Source: Acholeplasmatales bacterium (lineage in GTDB: Bacteria; Bacillota_I; Bacilli_A; Izemoplasmatales; Hujiaoplasmataceae). Taken from it: a stretch of 64,000 nucleotides of DNA. The translations under genes and the position numbers were made by a program. The notes below the pieces were generated by a model. It searched no databases and was not told the origin of the DNA. It was given only the letters and a program-made list of their open reading frames with translations. The stretch spans positions 19,160 to 83,159 of the forward strand of contig DMTN01000039.1 of assembly GCA_003477305.1 (NCBI GenBank). Reading direction: 5' to 3'. Shown one piece after another: positions 2,194-53,433 of this stretch (positions are counted from its first letter, which is position 1; every line of letters begins with the position of its first letter).

Positions 2194-3840
2194 ATGAACA
2201 TCGTCCTGTGCGCCATCGACGCCAAATTCATCCATACGAACGTTGCCCTCCGGCTTCTGAAGGCGAACTGCCCGCTTCCTTGCGAACTGTTCGAATTCAC
2301 GATCAAAAGCGATGAGGACACGATCGTCTCAACCATCCTTGCGGCGGCGCCCGACCTCGTCGCGTTTTCCGTCTATATCTGGAACGTCGAAATCGTCAGG
2401 CGGGTCGCAGACGCGATCCGCAAACGTTCCTCTGCGAAAATCGTTGCCGGCGGCCCTGAAGTAGCCCATGACGCAGGGCGTTTTCTCGCCGATTGTCCGT
2501 TCGACTTTGTCGTCCGAGGCGAGGGCGAACGAGCTTTTGCGCGCCTCGTGACAGCCCTCGCGGACGGATCTTCGTTCCGTGACATCCCGAATTTGGCGTA
2601 TTGGGACGGTTCGACGGAACGGATCAATCCGATCGAACCGATCGCCGACCTTGCCGGGATTGCCAGCCCGTATCGGTTTACGGCGGATGAAAAAGACATC
2701 CCGCGCAAGATCCAGTACCTCGAACTATCCCGCGGCTGTCCCTTTTCCTGCGCGTACTGTCTCGCTCCGCTCGATGGGGCGGTGCGGTTTTTCCCGCTTC
2801 CGCGAATCAAGGATGAGATTCTGGCTTTGCAGGAACGCGGCGCGCGGACCTTCAAGTTCCTCGACCGCACCTTCAACGTCCGGCCCGAGGTCGCGACCGA
2901 CCTCTTCGACTTCATCATCCGAAACCGGCGTGACGGCGTCGTCTTCCAGTTCGAGATCACCGGCGACATCCTGCCCGATGCGATCATCCGGCACTTAAAC
3001 GATGTCGCGCCGCCCGGGCTGTTCCGCTTCGAGATCGGGATCCAGTCGACGAACGATGCGACCAACCGGGCGGTCGCGCGCACGCAAGACAACGCGCGCC
3101 TCTTTAAGAACATCCGTGCGCTCGTCGCGGGCGGACGCGTCACGATCCATCTCGATCTGATCGCCGGTCTGCCGGAAGAGGGTCTGGATTCCTTCATCCG
3201 CACGTTCGACGATTCGTTTGCGCTCTTCGCCCCCGAACTGCAGCTCGGGTTTTTGAAGATGCTCCGAGGAACGCCGCTGCGGCGTGACGCCGCTCGACTG
3301 GGGTATGAATATGATCCGAATCCGCCCTACCAGGTGACAAAAAGCGCCGTGCTGTCGGCCGTCGACCTCGATCGCATCGCTTGCGTCGAAGCCGTCCTCG
3401 AACACTTCTGGAACCGCGGCTTCATGCCGGAAGCGATGAAGATGATGCACGCATGCGTTCCTTCGATGTTCTTTTGGATGGAATCGCTGTATGCGTTTCT
3501 TCTTGATCGCGGCTTCTCGTTTCTCCGCCACCAGATCTTCGAGATGTTTGCGCTCATCGACGCGTTCGCGCAGAAGACGATTCCCGCCGGATACGCGAAC
3601 GTGCATGACGCGCTCGTCCGCGACTATCTCGAACGGGCCGAGGCGCGTCCGAAACCGTGGTGGACGGTCCGTGAGGAACGCCGCGAGCAAAAAAGCGCGC
3701 TCTTGCAACGGGCGCATGCAATCGATCCGTCGATCCCGCTCGACGATTATTTCAAATACGGCGTCGTCGCTCCATACGCCGGCGGTTACCTCGCCGCGGT
3801 CTATCGTCCGTCCGGAAAATCCATGATCCGATTCGATTGA
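2194..3840 (+). CDS. B12-binding-domain radical SAM protein (DUF4080-type)
   Basis: 548 aa. N-terminal B12-binding-like domain, then the radical SAM cluster motif SRGCPFSCAYC (CxxxCxxC). Confidence 0.8.
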   Translation: MNIVLCAIDAKFIHTNVALRLLKANCPLPCELFEFTIKSDEDTIVSTILAAAPDLVAFSVYIWNVEIVRRVADAIRKRSSAKIVAGGPEVAHDAGRFLADCPFDFVVRGEGERAFARLVTALADGSSFRDIPNLAYWDGSTERINPIEPIADLAGIASPYRFTADEKDIPRKIQYLELSRGCPFSCAYCLAPLDGAVRFFPLPRIKDEILALQERGARTFKFLDRTFNVRPEVATDLFDFIIRNRRDGVVFQFEITGDILPDAIIRHLNDVAPPGLFRFEIGIQSTNDATNRAVARTQDNARLFKNIRALVAGGRVTIHLDLIAGLPEEGLDSFIRTFDDSFALFAPELQLGFLKMLRGTPLRRDAARLGYEYDPNPPYQVTKSAVLSAVDLDRIACVEAVLEHFWNRGFMPEAMKMMHACVPSMFFWMESLYAFLLDRGFSFLRHQIFEMFALIDAFAQKTIPAGYANVHDALVRDYLERAEARPKPWWTVREERREQKSALLQRAHAIDPSIPLDDYFKYGVVAPYAGGYLAAVYRPSGKSMIRFD

Positions 3841-3877
3841 AAAACCGCCACCCGGCGAACCGGATGGCGGTTTTTTA
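3840..3877. terminator. bidirectional rho-independent terminator between convergent genes
   Basis: Hairpin ACCGCCA-CCGG-cgaa-CCGG-a-TGGCGGT flanked by an A-run (3841-3844) and a T-run (3871-3876). Confidence 0.7.
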
Positions 3878-4867
3878 TCTTGTTCCCTGATCGTAAATCT
3901 TGCCGGCGGCTTTCGGCGCGCGCGACGATTTCGACGTGGCCACGAGCACGATGAGCGTGGCGACATAGGGAATCATGCGATACAGGTTCGTGTTGATGTC
4001 GAGGGCGGAAAGGAAGGGAATCGACGAATACGAGATCGCGATCGTCTTCATGAGACCGAAGAAGAAGGCGGCGAACAGGACGCGGAACGGCCGCCAGTTG
4101 CCGAAGATGAGCACGGCGATGGCGAGGAAGCCGAATCCGGAAACCGTTCCTTCGAAGGACTTTCCGACGGATGCGGCGAAGATGAAGCCGCCCATCCCGG
4201 CGAGGAAACCGGAGGTGAGGACGGCGCCGTAGCGGATCTTGAAGATGTTGACGCCGAGCGAGTCGGCGGCGTGCGGGTTTTCGCCGCAGGCCATCAGGCG
4301 CAGGCCGGTCTTCGTCTTATAGAGGAAAACGTAGGCGAGAAGCAGGATGATGATCCCCATGTAGAAACCGACATTGACGTTCTTGAAGAACAGGTCGCCG
4401 ATCACCGGGATGTCGGCGAACGAACCGACTTCCGTCATCTTGAACGTGGTTTTGTATTCGATGTGGCGGCCGCCGATGACCGAACGGGCGACGAAGATCG
4501 CGATCGCCGGGGCGACCAGGTTCAGGGCCGTGGCGGAAATCGTTTGGTCGGCCTTCATCGTGATCGAAGCATAGGCGTGCAGCCAAGAAAAGAGCAATCC
4601 GGCGATGCCGCCGATGAAGGCGCCCTCGATGAAGAGGATGCTCTTATCGAGGTTGGACTGCGCCGCGGCGAGGACGAGCGTCTGCGGTTCGGCGATCTTG
4701 ACGAACCAGCAGCCGACGAACGCGCCGAAGATCATGATGCCTTCGAGGGCGATGTTGGTGACGCCGCTCTTTTCGCAGATCATCGCGCCGACGGCGACGA
4801 TCAAAAGCGGAATCATCGTTTCAAGCGTGGAGGTGAACAGTTCGTAGACGAGCGCATTCGTGATCAT
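3875..4867 (-). CDS. ABC transporter permease (BMP/nucleoside-type system, second permease)
   Basis: 330-aa polytopic hydrophobic protein. 4-nt overlap with the upstream permease. Sits in an operon with a BMP lipoprotein and a double-NBD ATPase. Confidence 0.85.
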   Translation of the reverse strand: MITNALVYELFTSTLETMIPLLIVAVGAMICEKSGVTNIALEGIMIFGAFVGCWFVKIAEPQTLVLAAAQSNLDKSILFIEGAFIGGIAGLLFSWLHAYASITMKADQTISATALNLVAPAIAIFVARSVIGGRHIEYKTTFKMTEVGSFADIPVIGDLFFKNVNVGFYMGIIILLLAYVFLYKTKTGLRLMACGENPHAADSLGVNIFKIRYGAVLTSGFLAGMGGFIFAASVGKSFEGTVSGFGFLAIAVLIFGNWRPFRVLFAAFFFGLMKTIAISYSSIPFLSALDINTNLYRMIPYVATLIVLVATSKSSRAPKAAGKIYDQGTR

Positions 4868-37241: not shown

Positions 37242-37279
37242 TAAAAACGAAACCGCGGTCCCATGTCGGGGACCGCGGT
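37242..37279 (-). terminator. rho-independent terminator closing the peptide/regulator cassette
   Basis: Perfect 11-bp stem ACCGCGGTCCC / GGGACCGCGGT, followed on the minus strand by TTTCGTTTTTA. Confidence 0.65.
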
Positions 37280-37345
37280 CGGATCAGGAGGTGATGCGAT
37301 GGTTCACGGGGCGGCGATGCCGCCCGTGTCAGGGGTGGCGATGAA

Positions 37346-38638
37346 TCAGATCATGACGGATTCGTCGGAGAGCATCCGCGACGGTTTCGGCGCCTTCTTG
37401 TTGGCGAGTTCGTCCATCAGGTCGCGGGCGACATCGAGGATGTACTGGGCGCGGAACTTGTAGACTTCCATCTGGGTCTCGGCGAGTTTGAACGCGGCTT
37501 CGATTTCCTTGTACGACAGGCGGTTGAAATACGCCTTGAAGAAATGGATGAGCGAGAGGTATTCCGAGGCATATTGGTTCGCGGCGTTCAGGCGGTCGAG
37601 AATCTCGATGTAGGCGTTGGCGTTGTCGGCCTGCTTCAGGGAGTACATGCAGTAGGCGATCATGATCGCCTCGTAGTCCGGCTTCTTCGTCTGTTCCTTC
37701 TCGATCATATTGTAGTATTTGAGCGCTTCTTCGTATTTTTTCTCCATGAGGAGGCAGTCGGCATAGTTCAGATACGTGACGCGGGTGTTGCGCTGGACGT
37801 CGGTGAAGGTCATGTAGACGAGGTTCTTGCGCAGCAGTTTCTTCGCTTCGTCGATGTTCCCGAGTTTCTTGTAGAACGTCGCGATGTTGATGCGGCAGTA
37901 GACGGCCTTGTTATAGTTGAGCTGCTCTTCGAGCCGGGGCAGGGCCTTGTTCGCATAGATGAGGGCGTTGATGTAGTCGCCGATCATCGAGTAGGCGAAG
38001 GAGACGTGATAGTTGGCGGTCGGTTCGAAATCGATGAAGTTGGCGCCCATGTAGATCGTCAGGCGGGCGTAATGGACGACCTTCTCGCGATCCTTCTTGA
38101 ACCCGTAGTAGCAGGTCATGTATTCGTAATAGAGGAACCGGTGTTCATTGGACATCTTGTCCACGAAGTTCTTGAGGAACTCGATCGACTCGTCGAGTTT
38201 TTCCCAGGCGATCACGTTGGTATAGTTGACTTCGGAGATGTAGTAGATCAGTTGTTCGAGATAATATTGGATCATCAGGATCGAGTTCTGATAGAGCGGC
38301 AGGTTCGCCGTCGAGGCATCATAGTACTTCTTGAAGTCGTTGACCTTCGAAAAACAGACAGACGTATAAAAACGACTAAAATTCTCATCGAAGGACACAA
38401 TCGTCGACGGGTCGATTTTAGTCTGGATGTTGAGTACTTCGGCCATGCGCTCGAGCATGTCGCCGGATCCGCTGAATCCTTTCAGCTGGGCACGCCGAAA
38501 ATTGGACTTTGGAATATCCGCGCTTTCGTTGATGTCCTTCTGCGTGAGTCCCCGAAGTTTCTTCAGGTACTCGACCATCACGATGATGTCGTAGTGGTCC
38601 TTGAAATAATAACCGCACGAAAAATCATAGATCGTCAT
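37346..38638 (-). CDS. HTH (XRE-type) + TPR-like repeat transcriptional regulator, RNPP-like
   Basis: 430 aa. N-terminal helix-turn-helix LKKLRGLTQKDINESADIPKSNFRRAQ. The remaining ~350 aa is all-helical and Y/L/A/N/K-rich, TPR-like (e.g. AVYCRINIATFYKKLGNIDEAKKLL, YEEALKYYNMI). RBS AAAAGGATGA upstream. Confidence 0.75.
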   Translation of the reverse strand: MTIYDFSCGYYFKDHYDIIVMVEYLKKLRGLTQKDINESADIPKSNFRRAQLKGFSGSGDMLERMAEVLNIQTKIDPSTIVSFDENFSRFYTSVCFSKVNDFKKYYDASTANLPLYQNSILMIQYYLEQLIYYISEVNYTNVIAWEKLDESIEFLKNFVDKMSNEHRFLYYEYMTCYYGFKKDREKVVHYARLTIYMGANFIDFEPTANYHVSFAYSMIGDYINALIYANKALPRLEEQLNYNKAVYCRINIATFYKKLGNIDEAKKLLRKNLVYMTFTDVQRNTRVTYLNYADCLLMEKKYEEALKYYNMIEKEQTKKPDYEAIMIAYCMYSLKQADNANAYIEILDRLNAANQYASEYLSLIHFFKAYFNRLSYKEIEAAFKLAETQMEVYKFRAQYILDVARDLMDELANKKAPKPSRMLSDESVMI

Positions 38639-38732
38639 GTTGAATCATCCTTTTCACGAAGCTGTTTTTGGGGCATATCTATCGAACACCCGAAACCGCT
38701 TCGTTCCAAGGCAAAACGATGAGGCGTTTGCT

Positions 38733-39275
38733 TTAGAGCGAAATGAGGGCGTTCGGGTAAGCGAATTCGGGTTCCGGGTCATCGGCGAGTTGAATGACTT
38801 TGATGGGATAGGCGAATTCCGGTTCCGGGTCATCGGCGAGTTGAATGACTTTGGTGGGATAAGCGAATTCCGGTTCCGGGTCATCGGCGAGTTGAATGAC
38901 TTTTCCGGGATAGGCGAATTCCGGTTCCGGATCATCGGCGAGCTTGACGGCTTTTCCGGGATAGGCGAACTCGGGCTCTGCATCGCTAGTCTTACGGAAG
39001 GCTTTTCCGGGATAAGCGAATTCGGGTTCCGGATCATCCGACTGAGTGAAAGCTTTTCCGGGATAGGCGAACTCGGGTTCCGGGTCATCGGCGAGCTGAA
39101 TGGCCTTGGTCGGATAGGCGAACTCGGGTTCCGGGTCATCGGCGAGCTGGATGACTTTGACGGGGTAGGCGAACTCGGGTTCCGGATCGTCGGCGGCGTT
39201 GACCGTGGCGAACGTGACGAACAGGAAGGAAGCGAACAGGATGGCGATCAGGGACTTGAGAATGAGCTTTTTCAT
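38733..39275 (-). CDS. secreted tandem-repeat polypeptide (candidate multi-copy signalling pro-peptide)
   Basis: 180 aa. Signal peptide MKKLILKSLIAILFASFLFVTFATVNA, then 9 units of ~17 aa, each containing EPEFAYP. RBS AAAGGAGA 6 nt upstream. The other two open frames here are repeat artefacts. Confidence 0.75.
   Translation of the reverse strand: MKKLILKSLIAILFASFLFVTFATVNAADDPEPEFAYPVKVIQLADDPEPEFAYPTKAIQLADDPEPEFAYPGKAFTQSDDPEPEFAYPGKAFRKTSDAEPEFAYPGKAVKLADDPEPEFAYPGKVIQLADDPEPEFAYPTKVIQLADDPEPEFAYPIKVIQLADDPEPEFAYPNALISL
38736..39194 (-). repeat. nine tandem ~51-bp coding repeats (units of 45-54 bp)
   Basis: Repeated DNA core GGATAGGCGAA[TC]TC[CG]GGTTCCGG[GA]TCATCGGCGAG on the plus strand. 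Units encode (A)DDPEPEFAYPxK(V/A)(I/F)QL. Confidence 0.95.
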
Positions 39276-39359
39276 GGGAATCTCCTTTTGACGGCTGGTA
39301 TGGTACTACGGTGACGATTTGACTTTTTGAGATTTCGTGCGACCTCATGTGCCAACATC

Positions 39360-39388: not shown

Positions 39389-39402
39389 TATTCCCCTTTG
39401 TG

Positions 39403-39418
39403 AATACTAAGTACTATT
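39403..39418. promoter_or_regulatory. imperfect 16-bp palindrome upstream of the -35 (candidate regulator box)
   Basis: AATACTAAGTACTATT has 6 of 8 symmetric pairs. It is centred about 57 nt upstream of the predicted transcription start. Confidence 0.3.
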
Positions 39419-39591
39419 ATTATAGCATAATGCAAAATATCAAGCACTAAAATATTCGTTTTTTAGAACCTTTTGCGATTTTTCGGTTTTTTGACGAGCG
39501 GATTTCCGTCATACGAGTGGATAAAAATATTTTTTTCTTTATAGAAAACGATCGAATATTCATCATTTCGGACCTTTTCTGGCCGATCGGC

Positions 39592-39624
39592 AATAAAAAA
39601 GACGGTCTGATTGCTCAAACCGTC
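39592..39624 (-). terminator. rho-independent terminator overlapping the end of the PQ-loop gene
   Basis: GACGGT (39601-39606) pairs with ACCGTC (39619-39624), followed on the minus strand by TTTTTTATT. Confidence 0.6.
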
Positions 39625-39899
39625 GTTGTTTCGCGATGAAGGTCCAACCGGATATTCCGGAAAAGCAGAAGGCAATAGACCCCCACGATGGCGAAGTTGA
39701 AGAAGTAGAAGGCGAGGACATAGGTGATCTGCCCGTTCACGAATTTGTTCACGATCCCCATCGCATAACCGAACAGGATCAACAGCACGGCCGGCAGACT
39801 CGCTCCTTTGGCGGTGCGGGCTTTGTACGCCTTGAAGACGGCGACCGGCCAGGACGCACCGAAGCAGAGCAACATCAGAACTTCGAAGATTTGCGGCAT
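39615..39899 (-). CDS. small 3-TM membrane protein, PQ-loop / SemiSWEET-like
   Basis: 94 aa with three hydrophobic helices. WPVAVFKAYKARTAKGASL resembles the PQ-loop motif (PQ..K...K..S..G.S). Confidence 0.5.
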   Translation of the reverse strand: MPQIFEVLMLLCFGASWPVAVFKAYKARTAKGASLPAVLLILFGYAMGIVNKFVNGQITYVLAFYFFNFAIVGVYCLLLFRNIRLDLHRETTTV

Positions 39900-39913: not shown

Positions 39914-41161
39914 TTACTTCTTCTTCGTTTCCGCGTTGACGATCTTGAACAGTTCCTCGGCCGCGAAGTGAAGCTTGGTCACGACGTTTTTCTGATGACG
40001 CGGGTAGAGATAATAGGTGTCGTCGAGCGTCGACAGCGAGATACAGTCTGCGCCCTTGCCGAGATAGTCGTATTCGATGTGGATCGAATAATTGGCGAGC
40101 GGTTCCTTCTCGAGCGAAAATTCTACTCCGTCGAACACGCCCTTGACATGGAACCCGGTCCGGTCATGCACGAGATTGGCGTTGCCGAGCCGGATGAACC
40201 CTTTCGACCCCGGCAGCGAGTCGACGATGACGTCGTCTTCGAATCGGTAGTTGCCGGACTCGATCTCGCGTTTGACGTTCCCGCGCTCCCATTCGTACCA
40301 GTCCGGGACGCTCGTGAATTTGCCGTCACCGTTCTCGCCGTGCAGGACCCCGTGGGTGTCCATGTCGTATGCCTTGCCACAATGGCCGCACCAGAGACGG
40401 CTGCCGTCGGATTCCATCTCGTGCTCGGTGAGGCAGTGCGGGCACTGGTAGAGCACGCGGTGCAGACCCTTGGCCCGATCCTTGAACGTCATTTCCTGTT
40501 TCGATTCGAGCAGGTAGCGGTATTCGTCGTACACAAACGCCTTGGCGATGCGGGCGTTGATTTCCGCGACGGATATCGTCTTAATTTCGTCGGCGGTGAC
40601 GATCTGCGTCATGTCGGCCGCCAGTCGGATCTTCCGCTGCGTCAGATTCCAGACCGGCGAAGACAGATGGTCTCCGTGCATGTTGAGGACGGCGACCGGG
40701 ACTTTCATGACCTTGCACAACTTGCCGAGCGAGTCGGGTAAAATCGCCGTCGTCCCGCTGATCGAATAGCGCGCTTCCGGATAGATCGCGGCGATCGTCT
40801 TGTTGACTTTGAGCGAGTGTTCGATCTGCCGGACGAGGACGATGTCGTTCGTGAATTTCCGCTTGCAGATGCAACCGACATTGCGGAGGAGCTGCTCGCG
40901 GTTGATGAATCCGTCGATGGCCACGACATAGTTGGCGGTATGCGGAAAAATCGCGGCGGTCGTGACCGAGAAATCGATGAAGGCGGCGTGCGTACAAAGC
41001 AAAATGTACGGCGGTTTGAGCCCTTTCATATTGACCTTGTTGACTTTCAGGTGGTGTTTCCAAACGTTCGGGAAAGCCATGACCCAGGATAAAAGCGTCA
41101 GATACCACGCCTGTTTTTTCGGTTTTGCCAACATGTCGTAATGGACGATGCTCTTCTGCAT
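39914..41161 (-). CDS. lysophospholipid / 1-acyl-sn-glycerol-3-phosphate acyltransferase family protein with a C-terminal zinc-ribbon domain
   Basis: 415 aa. Acyltransferase HX4D motif (CTHAAFIDF), plus CPHC...CGHC in the C-terminal half. Confidence 0.75.
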   Translation of the reverse strand: MQKSIVHYDMLAKPKKQAWYLTLLSWVMAFPNVWKHHLKVNKVNMKGLKPPYILLCTHAAFIDFSVTTAAIFPHTANYVVAIDGFINREQLLRNVGCICKRKFTNDIVLVRQIEHSLKVNKTIAAIYPEARYSISGTTAILPDSLGKLCKVMKVPVAVLNMHGDHLSSPVWNLTQRKIRLAADMTQIVTADEIKTISVAEINARIAKAFVYDEYRYLLESKQEMTFKDRAKGLHRVLYQCPHCLTEHEMESDGSRLWCGHCGKAYDMDTHGVLHGENGDGKFTSVPDWYEWERGNVKREIESGNYRFEDDVIVDSLPGSKGFIRLGNANLVHDRTGFHVKGVFDGVEFSLEKEPLANYSIHIEYDYLGKGADCISLSTLDDTYYLYPRHQKNVVTKLHFAAEELFKIVNAETKKK

Positions 41162-41275: not shown

Positions 41276-42814
41276 TCAGAGCACGGTCGTGACGACGTTT
41301 TTATTCGAGCGTTTGGAGATGTAAAGGGCTTCGTCGGCGCCTTTGATCGTTTCCTTCAGCGAACCGCTGCCGACACGGGCGCCCTTGACGCCGACCGAGA
41401 CGGTGATGCGGATGCTGAGATTGCCGATTTCGAAGCTTGCTTGCTCCACGTTGACGCGGATGCGTTCGGCGACGACGCGGGCCTCTTCCGGCCTGGCGTC
41501 GCGGACGAAGACGACGAATTCTTCGCCGCCGTACCGGGCGAGCGTGGCATTCTCATCGAGCGCTGATTGGATGATGCTTGCCAAGTCTTCGAGGACCACG
41601 TCGCCGACCGGATGACCGTAGGTATCATTGACTTTCTTGAAGTCGTCGATGTCGATCATCATCACCGAATAATCGCCCTGCCCATGGGTCGGATCGTCGA
41701 GATAGGCGGTCGTTGCCGCAAAGAATGCGCGTCGGTTGAATACGGCGGTCAAGGAGTCGTGCGAGGCCTCATAATCCAGTTTCTCGATGCGTTCGAGATA
41801 ACTCGTCATATCGTTGAAGCGAATGATGTATCCGCTCAGCGTCCCGTGTTTCGTACTGAGCGGGAAGGTTTCAGCGATGTAACGCTTGTCATGATGCTCG
41901 AACGGAACCGTCTCCTTGCCTTTGACGGACTCGACGAACTCCTCGGGAAGAAACGACGCGGACAAAGGCATCCCGAAATGCACGACGTCTTTGCCGAAAT
42001 CGTCAAACGCGGCGTTCCAGGAAATGACATCGTAATGCTCATCAAGCACCAGAATCGGGTCAAGCGCCTTCTCAAATGTCGCCTGATGGGCGGACGGCGT
42101 CAAAATGAAGAGATCGTAGCGGAACATGAAATACAGGATGACGAAGCTGATGGCGGAGATCGCATAAAGCACATAGTCCAACCCAGAGGTCACGGTGGAG
42201 AAGAGGGTCACCGAAATAAACAAAGAAGCGGCGAATCCAAACGTACCGAGGATCCAGGATTGGCGGCGTTTGATGCCGGTTGATTTGAGTGCGATTTTCA
42301 TGTAAAGGGCGCCGACGAGGGCGAGCACGAGCAGATTGTGGACCGCTTGCACATAGTACATCCAGCCCTTGCCGAGAACAAGAACGTCGATTCCCAGCGT
42401 CGCAGCGGAACCCGGCATGATTTCGGCGAACGTATAGTACCAGTCAAACGGCGTATAGTAGCTGAATTGAACTGAAATCATCACGATCGAGGGAATGAAC
42501 ACCGCGAGTGTGGTCTGCCACCATTTTGGTTTCCGATCACGCCAGCCGAACTTCACCGCGAGCAAAAACCAGAACGGTGCCATGAAAGGGATCGCAATAT
42601 ACTGGATGTGATTGAAAAGAATCTTGACGTCGATCGATGTCGCGGCCAGTTCCAGCGCATAGGCGGTCGCATAGATCCCCAAGAGGAAAAACATCACGGC
42701 GAGTTGCCAGAATCCATGGGCTCGCCGAAGATTCGTCACGATGGCGACGGCGATGCCGATCGAGATGATGCCGATGGCGAAGGTGACGCCGATGAGAATG
42801 ATGTCGAATTGCAT
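41276..42814 (-). CDS. diguanylate cyclase (membrane 7TM sensor - PAS-like - GGDEF)
   Basis: 512 aa. About 7 N-terminal TM helices. C-terminal GGDEF domain with RYGGEEFVVF and an RxxD-like I-site context. Confidence 0.85.
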   Translation of the reverse strand: MQFDIILIGVTFAIGIISIGIAVAIVTNLRRAHGFWQLAVMFFLLGIYATAYALELAATSIDVKILFNHIQYIAIPFMAPFWFLLAVKFGWRDRKPKWWQTTLAVFIPSIVMISVQFSYYTPFDWYYTFAEIMPGSAATLGIDVLVLGKGWMYYVQAVHNLLVLALVGALYMKIALKSTGIKRRQSWILGTFGFAASLFISVTLFSTVTSGLDYVLYAISAISFVILYFMFRYDLFILTPSAHQATFEKALDPILVLDEHYDVISWNAAFDDFGKDVVHFGMPLSASFLPEEFVESVKGKETVPFEHHDKRYIAETFPLSTKHGTLSGYIIRFNDMTSYLERIEKLDYEASHDSLTAVFNRRAFFAATTAYLDDPTHGQGDYSVMMIDIDDFKKVNDTYGHPVGDVVLEDLASIIQSALDENATLARYGGEEFVVFVRDARPEEARVVAERIRVNVEQASFEIGNLSIRITVSVGVKGARVGSGSLKETIKGADEALYISKRSNKNVVTTVL

Positions 42815-48699: not shown

Positions 48700-49388
48700 T
48701 CTTCGCCGGGATGGTCAAGTCTTCCCTGATCGACTATCCGGGAAAAATCGCCACCGTGCTGTTCACGCCGGGGTGCAACTACAACTGCTTCTACTGCCAT
48801 AACCGCGCGATCATCGAAGACATCGACGTGCTCCTCGATCCGACTGAGGTCGACGACTTCCTCCTACGGCGCCAGGGCCTCATCGACGCCATCGTCGTCT
48901 CCGGCGGCGAACCGACCCTGCACCGCGATCTGATACCCTTTCTCCGCAAGGTGAAGGATCTCGGCTACCTCACCAAACTCGACACCAACGGATCCAACCC
49001 GGACGTCCTCAAGAAGTTGATCGACGAACATCTGGTCGACTACTTCGCCATCGACTACAAAGCGCCTGTCTGGCGCTACGGCGAGATTTGCGGACCGGAC
49101 GCCGACGGCAACGTCGTGCTCGAAACGCTCGTCATGCTCCTGTGGGCGGGCGTAGACTTCGAAGCGCGCACCACGGTCGTGCCGCAACTCACCGAGAAGG
49201 ACCTGATCCGGATGGCCAAGGAGATGCCGCCGCTTCCAAGATACGTCCTGAACCCGTACCGGAAGCCGAAAGTGTACCGTCCGGAAGACCAGGCCCGGAT
49301 CGACATCCCGCCGTATCCGGAAAAGCAGATCGCGAAATTCGCGGAGAACATCAAACTCTACCAGCAAAACGTCGTACTGATGTTTTAA
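48696..49388 (+). CDS. nrdG: anaerobic RNR activating protein (radical SAM)
   Basis: 230 aa. GCNYNCFYCHN cluster motif. 4-nt overlap with nrdD. Confidence 0.9.
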   Translation: MIFAGMVKSSLIDYPGKIATVLFTPGCNYNCFYCHNRAIIEDIDVLLDPTEVDDFLLRRQGLIDAIVVSGGEPTLHRDLIPFLRKVKDLGYLTKLDTNGSNPDVLKKLIDEHLVDYFAIDYKAPVWRYGEICGPDADGNVVLETLVMLLWAGVDFEARTTVVPQLTEKDLIRMAKEMPPLPRYVLNPYRKPKVYRPEDQARIDIPPYPEKQIAKFAENIKLYQQNVVLMF

Positions 49389-49395
49389 GCGTTCA

Positions 49396-49432
49396 AAGGA
49401 TGCGCAGCGAACCCTGTGCATCCTTTTGTTTT
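49396..49432 (+). terminator. rho-independent terminator after nrdG
   Basis: AAGGATGC (49396-49403) pairs with GCATCCTT (49418-49425), followed by TTGTTTT. Confidence 0.6.
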
Positions 49433-49594
49433 GTCGCCCACATGCGGTTATGCCGCGATCCCTGGTGCGATTACGACCGTTGTCCCCTGACCTCGAATCG
49501 TCAGAATCGTCCCTCCCCCACAGAAAACCGTTACCACATCCCGTTGTTTGTGATACAATATCAAGTGATATCCTTCTTACATCGGAGTTGTGCC

Positions 49595-51520
49595 ATGAAG
49601 AAAGTCCTCGTTCTGATCACCATCTCGCTTATCCTGTTCGCGCTTGCCGGCTGCGACCTTTTATCAACGATTTCAACCGCTGCGACCACGACGATCGAAA
49701 TCGGAACGGGCACGGATACGGAAACGACGAATCAGACGACGAATCAGACGACGACCACCGACACGACGTTGTTCGATACGCGGCCAAGCGCGATCGAGGC
49801 CGAGTTCGACCGGATCGAACCGCTGATCCCGGAGGCGATCATCGCCGATCGGGCGCTTCCCGCGACGACCGACCCGTCGATCACGGTCGAGTATTCCATC
49901 GACGGCACGCCGATCGGCATGACCCTCGTCTATAGCGCGCCGCCGACCGATGTCACCCTCGCGCTTGCGGTGACGCTGACCTATGGCGACCTCGCCGTCA
50001 CCCGCACCTACTCGATCCTCATGTTACGGGATTACGATGCCTACCAGGAGTATCTCCGGGATCTCGGTTTCTCCGAAATCGAAGCGTTGATCGAAGCCGG
50101 ACTGCCGGACGAGGCCAAATCGGACTTCACGCTGCCGATCATCTCCTACAACAATGCGGAAGTGAGTTATACGACGCCGGTCTCGCGCATCTATCACGGC
50201 CGCTTCGTCTTCACCTTCCCGTCCGTCGACGTTCAGCTCGTGATCACCTCACGCGTGATCTACATGGGACAGACGCGCTATTTCACTCATGAGATCACCC
50301 TCAAGGGGTTCTACTCGCTTTCCCGCATCCCGGAACTCTACATCCTCACCAGCGGCAATCAGGAAGTCACCTCCAAGGACTATTACATCGGCGGCGTCGC
50401 CACCTTAGTCACCTATGACGAGAACAACGTCGCGCACACCGTCTTCTCCAATCGTACGCTGGAAATCCGCTCGCGCGGCAACTCGACCTTATGGATGCCG
50501 AAACGGCCGTACAAGATCAAGTTCACCAACAAGACCGCGCTTTTGACGGAGTATGAGGCGAAAGACTGGGTCCTGCTCGCCAACTTCGCCGATCAGACGC
50601 TCATCCGAAACAAACTCGCCATCCAACTCGCCAACGCGATGGGCATGCCCTATACTCCATCCGCCAATTTCGTCGAAGTCTATATGAACAACGCGTACAT
50701 CGGAAACTACATGGTCACCGATCAGATCGAGGTTTCGTCCGTTCGCATCGACATCGAAGAAGATTCGTCGGCTGCCGATACGGGCTATCTGCTCGAGTGG
50801 GACCTGCGGCAATTCGATTCCTGGCAGGCCGACGGCGAAGAAGGCGTCGCCTGGTTCAACATCTACGGCATCGCGTTCGCGATCAAATCGCCGCAACCGG
50901 ACGGTTTCTACTACAACCAAGCCCAATTCGACTACATCTACAATTACATGTTGAGCGTGCATCTGGCGCTGAAAAACAAACAAAGCTACACCGGGTTGAT
51001 CGACGAAGCATCCTTCATCGACTGGTTCATCGTGCAGGAGGTGTTCAAGAACGTCGACTCCGGATATTCCTCCAATTTCTACTACAAGGATAAGGGCGGA
51101 CTTCTGAAGATGGGTCCGATCTGGGATTTCGACCTCTCCTCGACGAACCCGGGGCATCTCGACTACGAGAACCGCATGCCTCCGGGATGGTACACCCCGC
51201 AGCAGTACAAAAACGTCTGGTTCTACTACCTGATGAAGTACGAGGTGTTCCGCGAACATCTCAAGAATCGCTGGAACGACGTCTATGCCGATGCGATCGC
51301 GATGCTCGAATCGGTCTATCCGGAATCGGACGCGATCGCCCGGTCCCGCTACAGCAATTTCCAGCGCTGGGACATCATCGGGAAAAACTACGAATGGTAT
51401 ACCTCGACCGAGGTGTACGAAGCCAAAACCTACGAAGAGCAACTCGCTCTTTTATATGACTGGCTCGAAGCCAGGATCGCCTGGATGGACGAGGCGATCA
51501 ACGATCCGGATTTCGTCTGA
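49595..51520 (+). CDS. CotH-domain lipoprotein
   Basis: Start set at the ATG at 49595 (MKKVLVLITISLILFALAGC, lipobox LAGC), which has GGAG 8 nt upstream. Thr-rich linker. CotH-like core RGNSTLWMPKRPYKIKF...LIRNKLA...YIGNYMVTDQIEV. Confidence 0.8.
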   Translation: MKKVLVLITISLILFALAGCDLLSTISTAATTTIEIGTGTDTETTNQTTNQTTTTDTTLFDTRPSAIEAEFDRIEPLIPEAIIADRALPATTDPSITVEYSIDGTPIGMTLVYSAPPTDVTLALAVTLTYGDLAVTRTYSILMLRDYDAYQEYLRDLGFSEIEALIEAGLPDEAKSDFTLPIISYNNAEVSYTTPVSRIYHGRFVFTFPSVDVQLVITSRVIYMGQTRYFTHEITLKGFYSLSRIPELYILTSGNQEVTSKDYYIGGVATLVTYDENNVAHTVFSNRTLEIRSRGNSTLWMPKRPYKIKFTNKTALLTEYEAKDWVLLANFADQTLIRNKLAIQLANAMGMPYTPSANFVEVYMNNAYIGNYMVTDQIEVSSVRIDIEEDSSAADTGYLLEWDLRQFDSWQADGEEGVAWFNIYGIAFAIKSPQPDGFYYNQAQFDYIYNYMLSVHLALKNKQSYTGLIDEASFIDWFIVQEVFKNVDSGYSSNFYYKDKGGLLKMGPIWDFDLSSTNPGHLDYENRMPPGWYTPQQYKNVWFYYLMKYEVFREHLKNRWNDVYADAIAMLESVYPESDAIARSRYSNFQRWDIIGKNYEWYTSTEVYEAKTYEEQLALLYDWLEARIAWMDEAINDPDFV

Positions 51521-53076: not shown

Positions 53077-53433
53077 ATGAACGCGCTATTCATCGTACTG
53101 AACAAGACCGATTATCTCGACGACATCCTCAAAACGCTCGTGGAAATGGGCGTCGGGGGCGCCACCATCCTGGAATCGCAGGGCATGGCCCGCGCGATCG
53201 TGCACGGCGGCTACGACCACATCCCGCTGTTCGGATCGCTCAAGATGCTGATCGGCGACGAACATCCCTACAACAAGACCATCTTCACCGTCATCGAGAA
53301 CGACGAACTCGTCGATCTCGTCGCGGCGAAACTGCGCGAGGTCATCGACGAGCGCGACAAGCCGAATTCCGGTTTCATGTTCACGGTCCCGGTCGGACGC
53401 ATCATCCCCTTCACCGACAAGAACCATCGATAA
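53077..53433 (+). CDS. P-II-like (GlnB-fold) small signal-transduction protein
   Basis: 118 aa. The beta-alpha-beta pattern aligns by eye with PII: ALFIVLNKTDYLDDILKTLVEMGVGGATILESQG ... KTIFTVIENDELVDLVAAKLREVI ... GFMFTVPVGRII. RBS AAGGAGGGA upstream. Confidence 0.55.
   Translation: MNALFIVLNKTDYLDDILKTLVEMGVGGATILESQGMARAIVHGGYDHIPLFGSLKMLIGDEHPYNKTIFTVIENDELVDLVAAKLREVIDERDKPNSGFMFTVPVGRIIPFTDKNHR

Follow-up and report, generated by a model that had tools for sequence, protein, structure and literature searches.

Why should a bacterium encode a protein that consists of a signal-like N-terminus and nine tandem 17-residue units, in which one heptapeptide is kept constant although the codons that specify it differ from copy to copy? 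This question is raised by an open reading frame (ORF) on the minus strand at 39275..38733 of the window, by which we mean the whole 64-kb stretch of contig DMTN01000039.1 that was analysed. A first-pass annotation had argued that selection acts here on a short released peptide; the gene that lies 94 nucleotides (nt) downstream on the same strand was absent from it. This second gene encodes a putative receptor with a helix-turn-helix (HTH) and tetratricopeptide repeats (TPRs), and its adjacency narrows the rather general idea of some released peptide to an RRNPP-like quorum-sensing cassette. We consider it quite likely that the two genes form an RRNPP-type cassette for peptide quorum sensing, with a polyprotein as the propeptide.

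The precursor has 180 residues, and its repeat span, 38736-39194, corresponds to residues 28-180. Residues 1-27 (39195..39275, minus strand) look by inspection like a signal peptide made of MKK, a hydrophobic core and a VNA/A cleavage site, and the N-terminus, MKKLILKSLIAILFASFLFVTFATVNA cut before ADD, has the n/h/c layout and follows the -3/-1 rule of a signal-peptidase-I substrate. The same layout (MKK n-region, hydrophobic h-region of ~20 residues, VNA/A c-region) recurs, again by inspection, in 18 orthologous precursors. A ribosome-binding site, AGGAG (39286..39282, minus strand), stands 7 nt before the ATG. Each of the nine tandem 17-residue units (51 nt each; 38736..39194, minus strand) carries the putative signalling peptide (D)DPEPEFAYP, and the stop codon follows at 38735..38733 (minus strand). 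Tandem Repeats Finder described the DNA repeat with a period of 51 nt, 8.7 copies, 81% matches and a score of 471, while at the protein level the period is exactly 17 residues, with EPEFAYP starting at residues 32, 49 and so on to 168. EPEFAYP is identical in all nine units and DDPEPEFAYP in eight of them, unit 5 reading SDAEPEFAYP, and the C-terminus lies six residues past the last core. A Pfam scan and the sequence itself revealed no anchor, lipobox, transmembrane segment or second domain, and searches of Pfam, NCBIfam and PHROGs for named families returned only noise-level matches (HlyD_3 at E 0.022, YqiH). Thus, the nine-unit array with its invariant heptapeptide, the codon variants that the first-pass annotation had cited, and its statement that the protein has no other domain and ends right after unit 9 were all borne out.

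Pairwise comparison of the nine units by the Nei-Gojobori method gave 92 synonymous and 0 non-synonymous differences in the EPEFAYP core (ratio of non-synonymous to synonymous proportions, pN/pS, 0), as against 80 synonymous and 197 non-synonymous differences in the 6-residue spacer (pN/pS 0.78), which means that drift in the core is wholly silent, as had been supposed. Six of the seven core codons are variable, all six at the third position only, and the chance that six of six variable sites would be synonymous is, by a rough estimate, ~(4.33/21)^6 or roughly 8e-5. When the sites that vary within a gene were summed for the 27-nt core over 22 related loci, 11 of them fell on first, 6 on second and 129 on third codon positions, a split that settles the translated frame and indicates that the pattern is general and that each copy is individually maintained. 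Every core copy is under purifying selection. Two other frames across the repeat (plus strand, 38637..39314; minus strand, 38654..39139) were rejected because they have no counterparts of similar length in AT-rich orthologues, and also because third-position variation is concentrated in the DDPEPEF frame. The concern, raised at the outset, that a different frame might be the translated one was thereby put aside, as the DDPEPEF frame alone is preserved and carries the third-position drift.

The downstream gene (37346..38638, minus strand) encodes 430 residues, with a predicted XRE-type HTH at the N-terminus (~residues 21-75, nt 38578..38414, minus strand) followed by an all-helical TPR superhelix (~residues 77-415). 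No terminator is predicted in the 94-nt spacer between the two genes (38639..38732, minus strand), where the receptor gene has its ribosome-binding site, GGA(T)G, and the two genes are probably co-transcribed. A search of this spacer for an attenuator or another RNA element gave a hairpin that is not significant (z = -1.6) and no Rfam match. The receptor matches Pfam TPR_12 (E 1.5e-10), and its AlphaFold2 model, built on 32 homologues, is entirely helical (pLDDT 88, pTM 0.81). In a Foldseek comparison with the PDB the top match of this model was RapI (4i1a, E 1.9e-6, TM 0.70), and the other top matches were RapF, the Rap protein of phage phi3T with its pheromone, NprR-NprX (4gpk/5dbk, 17-19% identity) and the pLS20 Rap, all of which outranked generic TPR proteins such as LGN. 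The fold predicted by the model is Rap/NprR-like. A profile of 32 family members searched against PDB sequences found no NprR chain at E <= 10 and generic TPR matches only at E >= 0.2, and because there is no sequence match to the solved RRNPP structures, the link between the receptor and these structures is at the level of the fold.

The N-terminus of the receptor has no Rap or RapH_N match in Pfam or NCBIfam and is HTH-like instead. An exhaustive profile search of 1.84 billion representatives yielded full-length relatives of ~400 residues, and among 43 relatives scanned, Pfam HTH_3 was significant in 24 and RapH_N in 2. When the family was aligned by hhalign with one HTH_3-bearing relative, residues 21-75 fell on the HTH with 97.8% probability (E 7e-13), and it is in this same region that conservation within the family peaks (T32 Q33 K34. 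I36 N37 ... S45 ... R49 A50 Q51). Basic residues that are invariant in the receptor are H166, R167, K231, R249, K257 and K258. By profile alignment, the receptor N-terminus is homologous to HTH_3 domains.

Since a protein search with the precursor as query gave only 2 matches, the orthologous precursors were located via the receptor instead. There are 32 receptor homologues with 51-94% identity and orthologue lengths of 410-436 residues; the word-indexed search found no intermediates beyond these, and a word-indexed profile search gave the same 32. The names on their records are Candidatus Izemoplasmatales, Tenericutes, or unspecific metagenome-assembled genomes of Bacillota or Bacillales. The comparative set comprised 12 genome loci and 17 metagenome loci, at each of which the DNA upstream of the receptor gene was read, and ~25 related loci, most of them under the names Izemoplasmatales or Tenericutes, proved to have the precursor and receptor pair. 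Wherever the upstream sequence was long enough, it contained an ORF with a signal peptide and tandem copies of the core, L008 being the one exception. At L008, neither ATATTTACA, a promoter-proximal sequence described below, nor the palindrome promoter lies upstream of the receptor gene, and the neighbouring gene for a ~95-residue membrane protein has two in-frame TAG codons where its relatives have W and Y; the locus has the appearance of an orphan receptor next to a gene in decay.

The 18 complete precursors, with 105 units in total, have 1-9 copies, periods of 13-30 residues and lengths of 55-190 residues, and the multi-copy state is found in 17 of the 18. Over the 105 units the conserved block is D-D-[PD]-E-P-[ED]-[FI]-[VAM]-Y-[PCAL], in which four positions are invariant, while directly outside the block the column entropy is ~3 bits and the spacers are unrelated between lineages. 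The core DDPEPEFAYP of the window (nine copies) is also that of L013 and L014 (four each) and L020 (six). DDPEPDFVYP occurs six times in L016, and DDPEPEFVYP seven times in L017, five times in L004 on the complete chromosome OW818673.1, four times in P0034 and three times in P0033, with DDPEPEFVYC five times in L005 and DDPEPEIVYP six times in L006 and eight times in L026. A third residue D is found in DDDEPEFMYP (L003, seven copies), in DDDEPEFMY[ACL] (nine copies in L021, eight in L012 and four in L027) and in DDDEPEFAYP (L023, nine copies). DEDPEPEFVYP is present as a single copy in the 55-residue protein of L010. Half of the precursors (9 of 18) have their first core at residue 32, immediately behind the signal-peptidase site. 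The cores are thus kept in the orthologues, and the spacers are unrelated in both sequence and length, which is the opposite of the pattern (spacers conserved, core not) that would have spoken against the first-pass annotation, and supports its proposal of selection on a short peptide from a multi-copy precursor, presumably released by cleavage. Its suggestion that the spacer motif xK[VA][IF]QL-A forms a protease site fared less well. The motif is confined to the closest relatives, and a specific recognition site in the spacer is therefore not supported; only two semi-conserved residues, [LVG][AEI], precede the core.

Copy number changes fast. L027 has four copies and L021 nine, with flanks that are 98.5% identical, and the window has nine copies and L013 four, with 87% DNA identity and 94% receptor identity; the loci are mostly short-read assemblies, in which repeats may be collapsed, and because such assemblies break at the repeat, the copy numbers read from them are minimum values and protein catalogues often lack the gene. 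Four contigs end inside the precursor repeat (L001:1-325, L002:1-306, L015:1-245 and L022:1-150), and runs of N mask it in two more loci (L007:~3340-3520 and L009:~3480-3580). The G+C content of the window genes is ~53-63%, likewise in L001, L013, L014 and L016, and most loci labelled Izemoplasmatales are strongly A+T-rich; a published Izimaplasma genome is given as 29.6% G+C (PMC6256511). As G+C-rich and A+T-rich loci both carry the cassette, the family spans very different base compositions with the peptide core kept.

Five more distant relatives of the receptor (E 1e-65 to 5e-12 against the family profile) extend this comparison. All five have an adjacent ORF of 44-55 residues, which starts with MKK and a hydrophobic stretch and lies upstream of the receptor gene in four cases and downstream in one. 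The flanking genes of these relatives differ, but the pair of small ORF and receptor persists. The presence of the small ORF beside all five indicates that the pairing of propeptide and receptor is ancestral, and a single copy appears to be the ground state of the propeptide. Judged from these sequences, the window family is a sub-clade with a tandemly amplified peptide-coding unit. At L032:646-3399 and L034:954-3679, tandem receptor-like paralogues (408 and 396 residues; 409 and 392 residues) are found behind one small signal-peptide ORF, which ends in ...PPPDHPPVIFFTIKNLLSVLF and ...PGPDPPPIVFFTIKNLLSLLF, respectively, and this arrangement may be a two-receptor version of the cassette.

The DNA upstream of the precursor gene, in which all features are on the minus strand, bears on how the cassette might be controlled. 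Promoter P2 (39360..39388), a predicted element, consists of TTTACA, 17 nt and TATAGT, with TG before the -10, and an operator-like palindrome, TATTC-N8-GAATA (39389..39406), abuts its -35 hexamer. The -35 of P2 is supplied by AATATTTACA, which is invariant across all aligned orthologous upstream regions (n=8), and ATATTTACA is found upstream of the precursor in all 19 loci that have sequence there and only once in the 64-kb window. The same 19 loci have AATATTTACA and a TGnTATAAT element with ATTC-N8-GAAT palindromes on the flanks, and this set, too, is present once in the window. Further upstream, TGCTATAAT (39419..39427) resembles an extended -10 element, its TGnTATAAT is invariant in 8/8 aligned upstream regions, and a promoter-like match, TTGATA-16-AATAAT (39443..39416), overlaps it; this candidate element may be a distal promoter, P1. 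A distal operator-like box, GGTTC-N8-GAATA (39453..39470), corresponds to TATTC/TGTTC-N8-GAATA at the same aligned position in orthologues. The proximal box is the only exact match to TATTC-N8-GAATA in the 64-kb window, and a search for a regulon within the window with up to one mismatch (<=1) retrieved only the cassette promoter and a chance-level site at 53087; in shuffled controls, 43 of 100 gave two or more matches. The pair of genes is bracketed by two terminator-like hairpins, each with a T-run: the one at 39601..39624 (minus strand) ends the upstream gene for a 94-residue membrane protein and marks the upstream limit of the cassette, and the one at 37251..37280 (minus strand; 12 pairs, 9 of them G-C) follows the receptor gene and marks the downstream limit. 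P2 with its neighbouring palindromes has the features to be expected of a promoter autoregulated by a dimeric HTH protein, with both the binding and its sign putative. By analogy with PlcR-PapR and related loops, we propose with modest confidence that the receptor activates the cassette promoter.

RRNPP systems are defined by adjacent genes for a propeptide of 10-100 residues and a TPR receptor of 250-500 residues (Bernard et al. 2023, PMC10075063), and the propeptide is either Sec-exported (SignalP-positive) or of the SHP type (PMC10075063). With 430 residues, the receptor lies within this range, TPRs are present, and the propeptide gene is adjacent. An N-terminal effector HTH, as in NprR, PlcR, PrgX, Rgg and AimR, was recognized through hhalign and the HTH_3-bearing relatives. 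In the scheme that we infer, which extends from secretion and the exact cleavage points through re-import, peptide-receptor binding and DNA binding to the sign of regulation, the 180-residue precursor would be exported by Sec, and signal peptidase would cut after VNA. Because the first core follows the VNA site directly in half of the complete precursors, signal peptidase itself would create the N-terminus A-DD... there. Extracellular or surface proteases would cut between the units to give up to nine acidic peptides of ~9-10 residues, DDPEPEFAY(P), from each molecule, and the peptide would accumulate as cell density rises. It would then be re-imported, presumably via an oligopeptide permease, and bind the concave TPR groove of the cytoplasmic 430-residue receptor, whose HTH would change its occupancy of the ATTC-N8-GAAT palindromes at its own promoter. 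The outcome would most likely be activation and thus an autoinduction loop, and the receptor would probably also act on targets elsewhere in the genome.

Several observations weigh against this interpretation. The precursor, at 180 residues, exceeds the RRNPP propeptide limit of 10-100 residues, which is because its core is repeated; the 55-residue L010 protein and the distant 44-55-residue ORFs fit the limit. The receptor sequence matches only generic TPR models and no named RRNPP family in Pfam or NCBIfam, and in Foldseek, TPR superhelices have matches to unrelated proteins as well, LGN among them. Its direct match to HTH_3 is below threshold (E 0.14; HipB E 0.29), and the best folds for its N-terminal model, the XRE HTHs of HipB, SinR and C.Esp1396I, are non-significant, with a best E of 0.6. 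The spacers have no conserved protease motif, and the Y-P bond at the end of the core is a poor protease site, which makes the C-terminal boundary of the mature peptide ambiguous. Oligopeptide permease genes were not seen among the 30 window ORFs scanned. Finally, L008 (DILB01000002.1, 'Bacillales bacterium UBA5603', 3400-4001) has a receptor gene without a precursor ORF.

Three other explanations have to be weighed against an RRNPP-type cassette with a polyprotein propeptide. The precursor could belong to the multi-core type of ribosomally synthesized and post-translationally modified peptides (RiPPs), in which case the cores would be excised and modified, at Tyr or, in some orthologues, at Cys, to yield a natural product for secretion, with for example antimicrobial or metal-binding activity, and the HTH-TPR protein would be the regulator of the pathway. 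Conserved cores with variable spacers are typical of multi-core precursors in some RiPP classes, and modification could take place at the invariant Tyr with its acidic surroundings or, in L005, L012 and L021, at the Cys that follows Tyr. However, the N-terminus has the form of a Sec signal peptide and not of a RiPP leader, and the terminator-bounded cassette contains no modifying enzyme, dedicated protease or exporter; the neighbours (a PHP-domain protein, GH31, the small membrane protein and a 415-residue protein) stand outside it and are not conserved in the distant relatives, where only the small ORF and the receptor stay together. The single-copy protein of L010, moreover, resembles a standard pheromone propeptide. 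We therefore regard a RiPP as very unlikely. We hold it to be just as improbable that the product is an intact secreted or surface repeat protein, serving in cation binding, as a coat or in adhesion, with the units as structural repeats and a TPR regulator whose adjacency is incidental or purely regulatory. The precursor does share a highly acidic, proline-rich composition with some extracellular repeat proteins, and copy-number variation is common in surface repeat proteins, but here a block of 9-10 residues is under strict purifying selection in every copy between unconstrained spacers, and copy number goes down to one in L010, whose whole precursor is 55 residues long. The lack of any anchor, lipobox, transmembrane segment or further domain speaks against a surface protein as well, as does the pairing of receptor relatives with single peptides of 44-55 residues.

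The remaining explanation retains the quorum signal and changes the action of the receptor, which, like a Rap protein, would sequester or modify a partner protein without binding DNA, and some other regulator would act at the palindromes. In its favour, Rap proteins give the best fold matches (RapI at TM 0.70), RapH_N is found in two distant profile matches, the HTH signal of the family itself is sub-threshold, and NprR is bifunctional. Set against these points, residues 21-75 align by hhalign with a bona fide HTH_3, the family is most strongly conserved within this HTH region, at TQK.IN...I..S...RAQ, and HTH_3 is present in 24/43 relatives. In addition, the palindromic boxes accompany the cassette at every locus and are missing at L008, where the precursor is also missing. 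Purely Rap-like action consequently seems very unlikely to us.

If the locus is an RRNPP-type cassette, the question is how it differs from known systems. In the Rap-Phr systems of Bacillus, a single propeptide is known to hold tandem repeats of the pheromone (Even-Tov 2016, PMC5199041). For Phr propeptides as many as 8 copies have been reported, and extracellular proteases free the internal ones (Felipe-Ruiz 2024, PMC11343458). Like the tandem Rap-Phr propeptides of Bacillus and of phages phi3T and phi105, the window precursor appears to be Sec-exported and has several identical or near-identical pheromone copies, with conserved cores, unconserved spacers and internal copies that have to be cut at both ends; in both systems the TPR receptor is encoded by an adjacent gene, and the Rap receptor fold is the best PDB match. 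Unlike Rap, which has an N-terminal three-helix bundle, the window receptor has an N-terminal HTH, and it is not detectably a sequence member of the Rap models. Its precursor is encoded upstream of it instead of downstream, the core comprises ~9-10 acidic residues rather than the 5-6 of Phr, the multi-copy state is the rule (17/18) and not an occasional variant, and the host belongs to Izemoplasmatales and not to Bacillus.

NprR-NprX of the Bacillus cereus group is similar in the combination of an HTH with ~nine TPR-like repeats and in the fold already described. NprR has ~420 residues, close to the length of the window receptor, and NprX, a Sec-type propeptide, has its active peptide in the interior and not at the very C-terminus. 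It differs in that NprX is single-copy and encoded downstream of nprR, the receptor has no sequence match to NprR, and the operator and regulon are unrelated or not known to correspond. PlcR-PapR, also of the Bacillus cereus group, has an HTH-TPR regulator, a palindromic box and autoinduction of its own peptide gene, the last of which is what we propose for the window. PapR ends in ...LPFEF, an acidic/aromatic motif as in the window peptide, and PlcR, with ~285 residues and 5 TPRs, is shorter than the window receptor. PapR is single-copy with a C-terminal active peptide, and no homology was detected between the two systems. The likeness to the yeast alpha-factor precursor, drawn by the first-pass annotation and equally applicable to animal neuropeptide polyproteins, is apt as an analogy and is not homology. 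These precursors also have a signal peptide, tandem identical copies and spacers, amplify the signal stoichiometrically and vary in copy number, but they depend on the eukaryotic secretory pathway, conserved dibasic (Kex2) sites and a membrane G-protein-coupled receptor, whereas in the window system no conserved site is present in the spacers and the putative receptor, a cytoplasmic protein, is the product of the neighbouring gene.

Since multi-copy Phr propeptides are already known in Bacillus, what the window adds is a new receptor and peptide family and a new lineage, not a new principle. In terms of sequence, the receptor family is new in having no membership in the Rap, NprR, PlcR or similar families. 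Also new are the joining of an NprR-like HTH and TPR architecture to a polyprotein propeptide, the longer and strongly acidic core, and the multi-copy state as the norm.

The surroundings of the cassette were considered as well. An origin from a mobile element was rejected because the window is ordinary chromosome, with genes for UvrB, DnaE, PFK, acetate kinase, EF-G and NrdD, and because the flanking synteny (415-residue protein, 94-residue membrane protein and PHP protein) is common to most family loci. At most of these loci, the genes directly upstream encode the 415-residue protein (39914-41161, minus strand), which combines an acyltransferase-like HxxxxD motif with a zinc-ribbon-like CxxC...CxxC segment and has no Pfam match at 1e-5, and the 94-residue membrane protein with three helices (39615-39899, minus strand), which starts with MPQ and is separated from the cassette by the terminator. 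Most loci also keep the PHP-domain gene downstream in synteny, but a terminator separates this gene from the cassette, and there is no box in front of it. A protein with a seven-transmembrane domain (HisKA_7TM) and a GGDEF diguanylate cyclase is encoded two genes upstream of the cassette (41276-42814, minus strand). An 810-residue protein with a C-terminal CotH kinase domain is encoded at 49088-51520 (plus strand) in this apparently non-sporulating, mycoplasma-related genome.

Candidatus Izemoplasma is described in PMC8397711 as a free-living organism that has no cell wall and stands between Firmicutes and Mollicutes. In the literature we found no report of peptide quorum sensing in Izemoplasmatales and none linking Mollicutes with RRNPP, and three RRNPP surveys make no mention of such a system in this lineage. 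We suggest tentatively, as a possibility to which we give somewhat less weight than to its opposite, that this is the first peptide quorum-sensing system described for Izemoplasmatales, a Mollicutes-related lineage, in which tandem pheromone amplification is the normal state and copy number is an evolvable 'gain knob' for the amount of signal that a cell puts out and, with it, for the quorum threshold. Both the predicted peptide DDPEPEFAY(P) and the candidate operator ATTC-N8-GAAT are concrete enough to be tested without culturing the organism, and the combination of copies under purifying selection, free spacers and copy-number differences between close relatives makes signal dosage testable as an evolutionary variable. 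If the reading holds, detection rules that require a propeptide of at most 100 residues would systematically miss polyprotein precursors, so that the arrangement may be far more widespread, and RRNPP-type signalling would extend to an uncultured, mycoplasma-related lineage.

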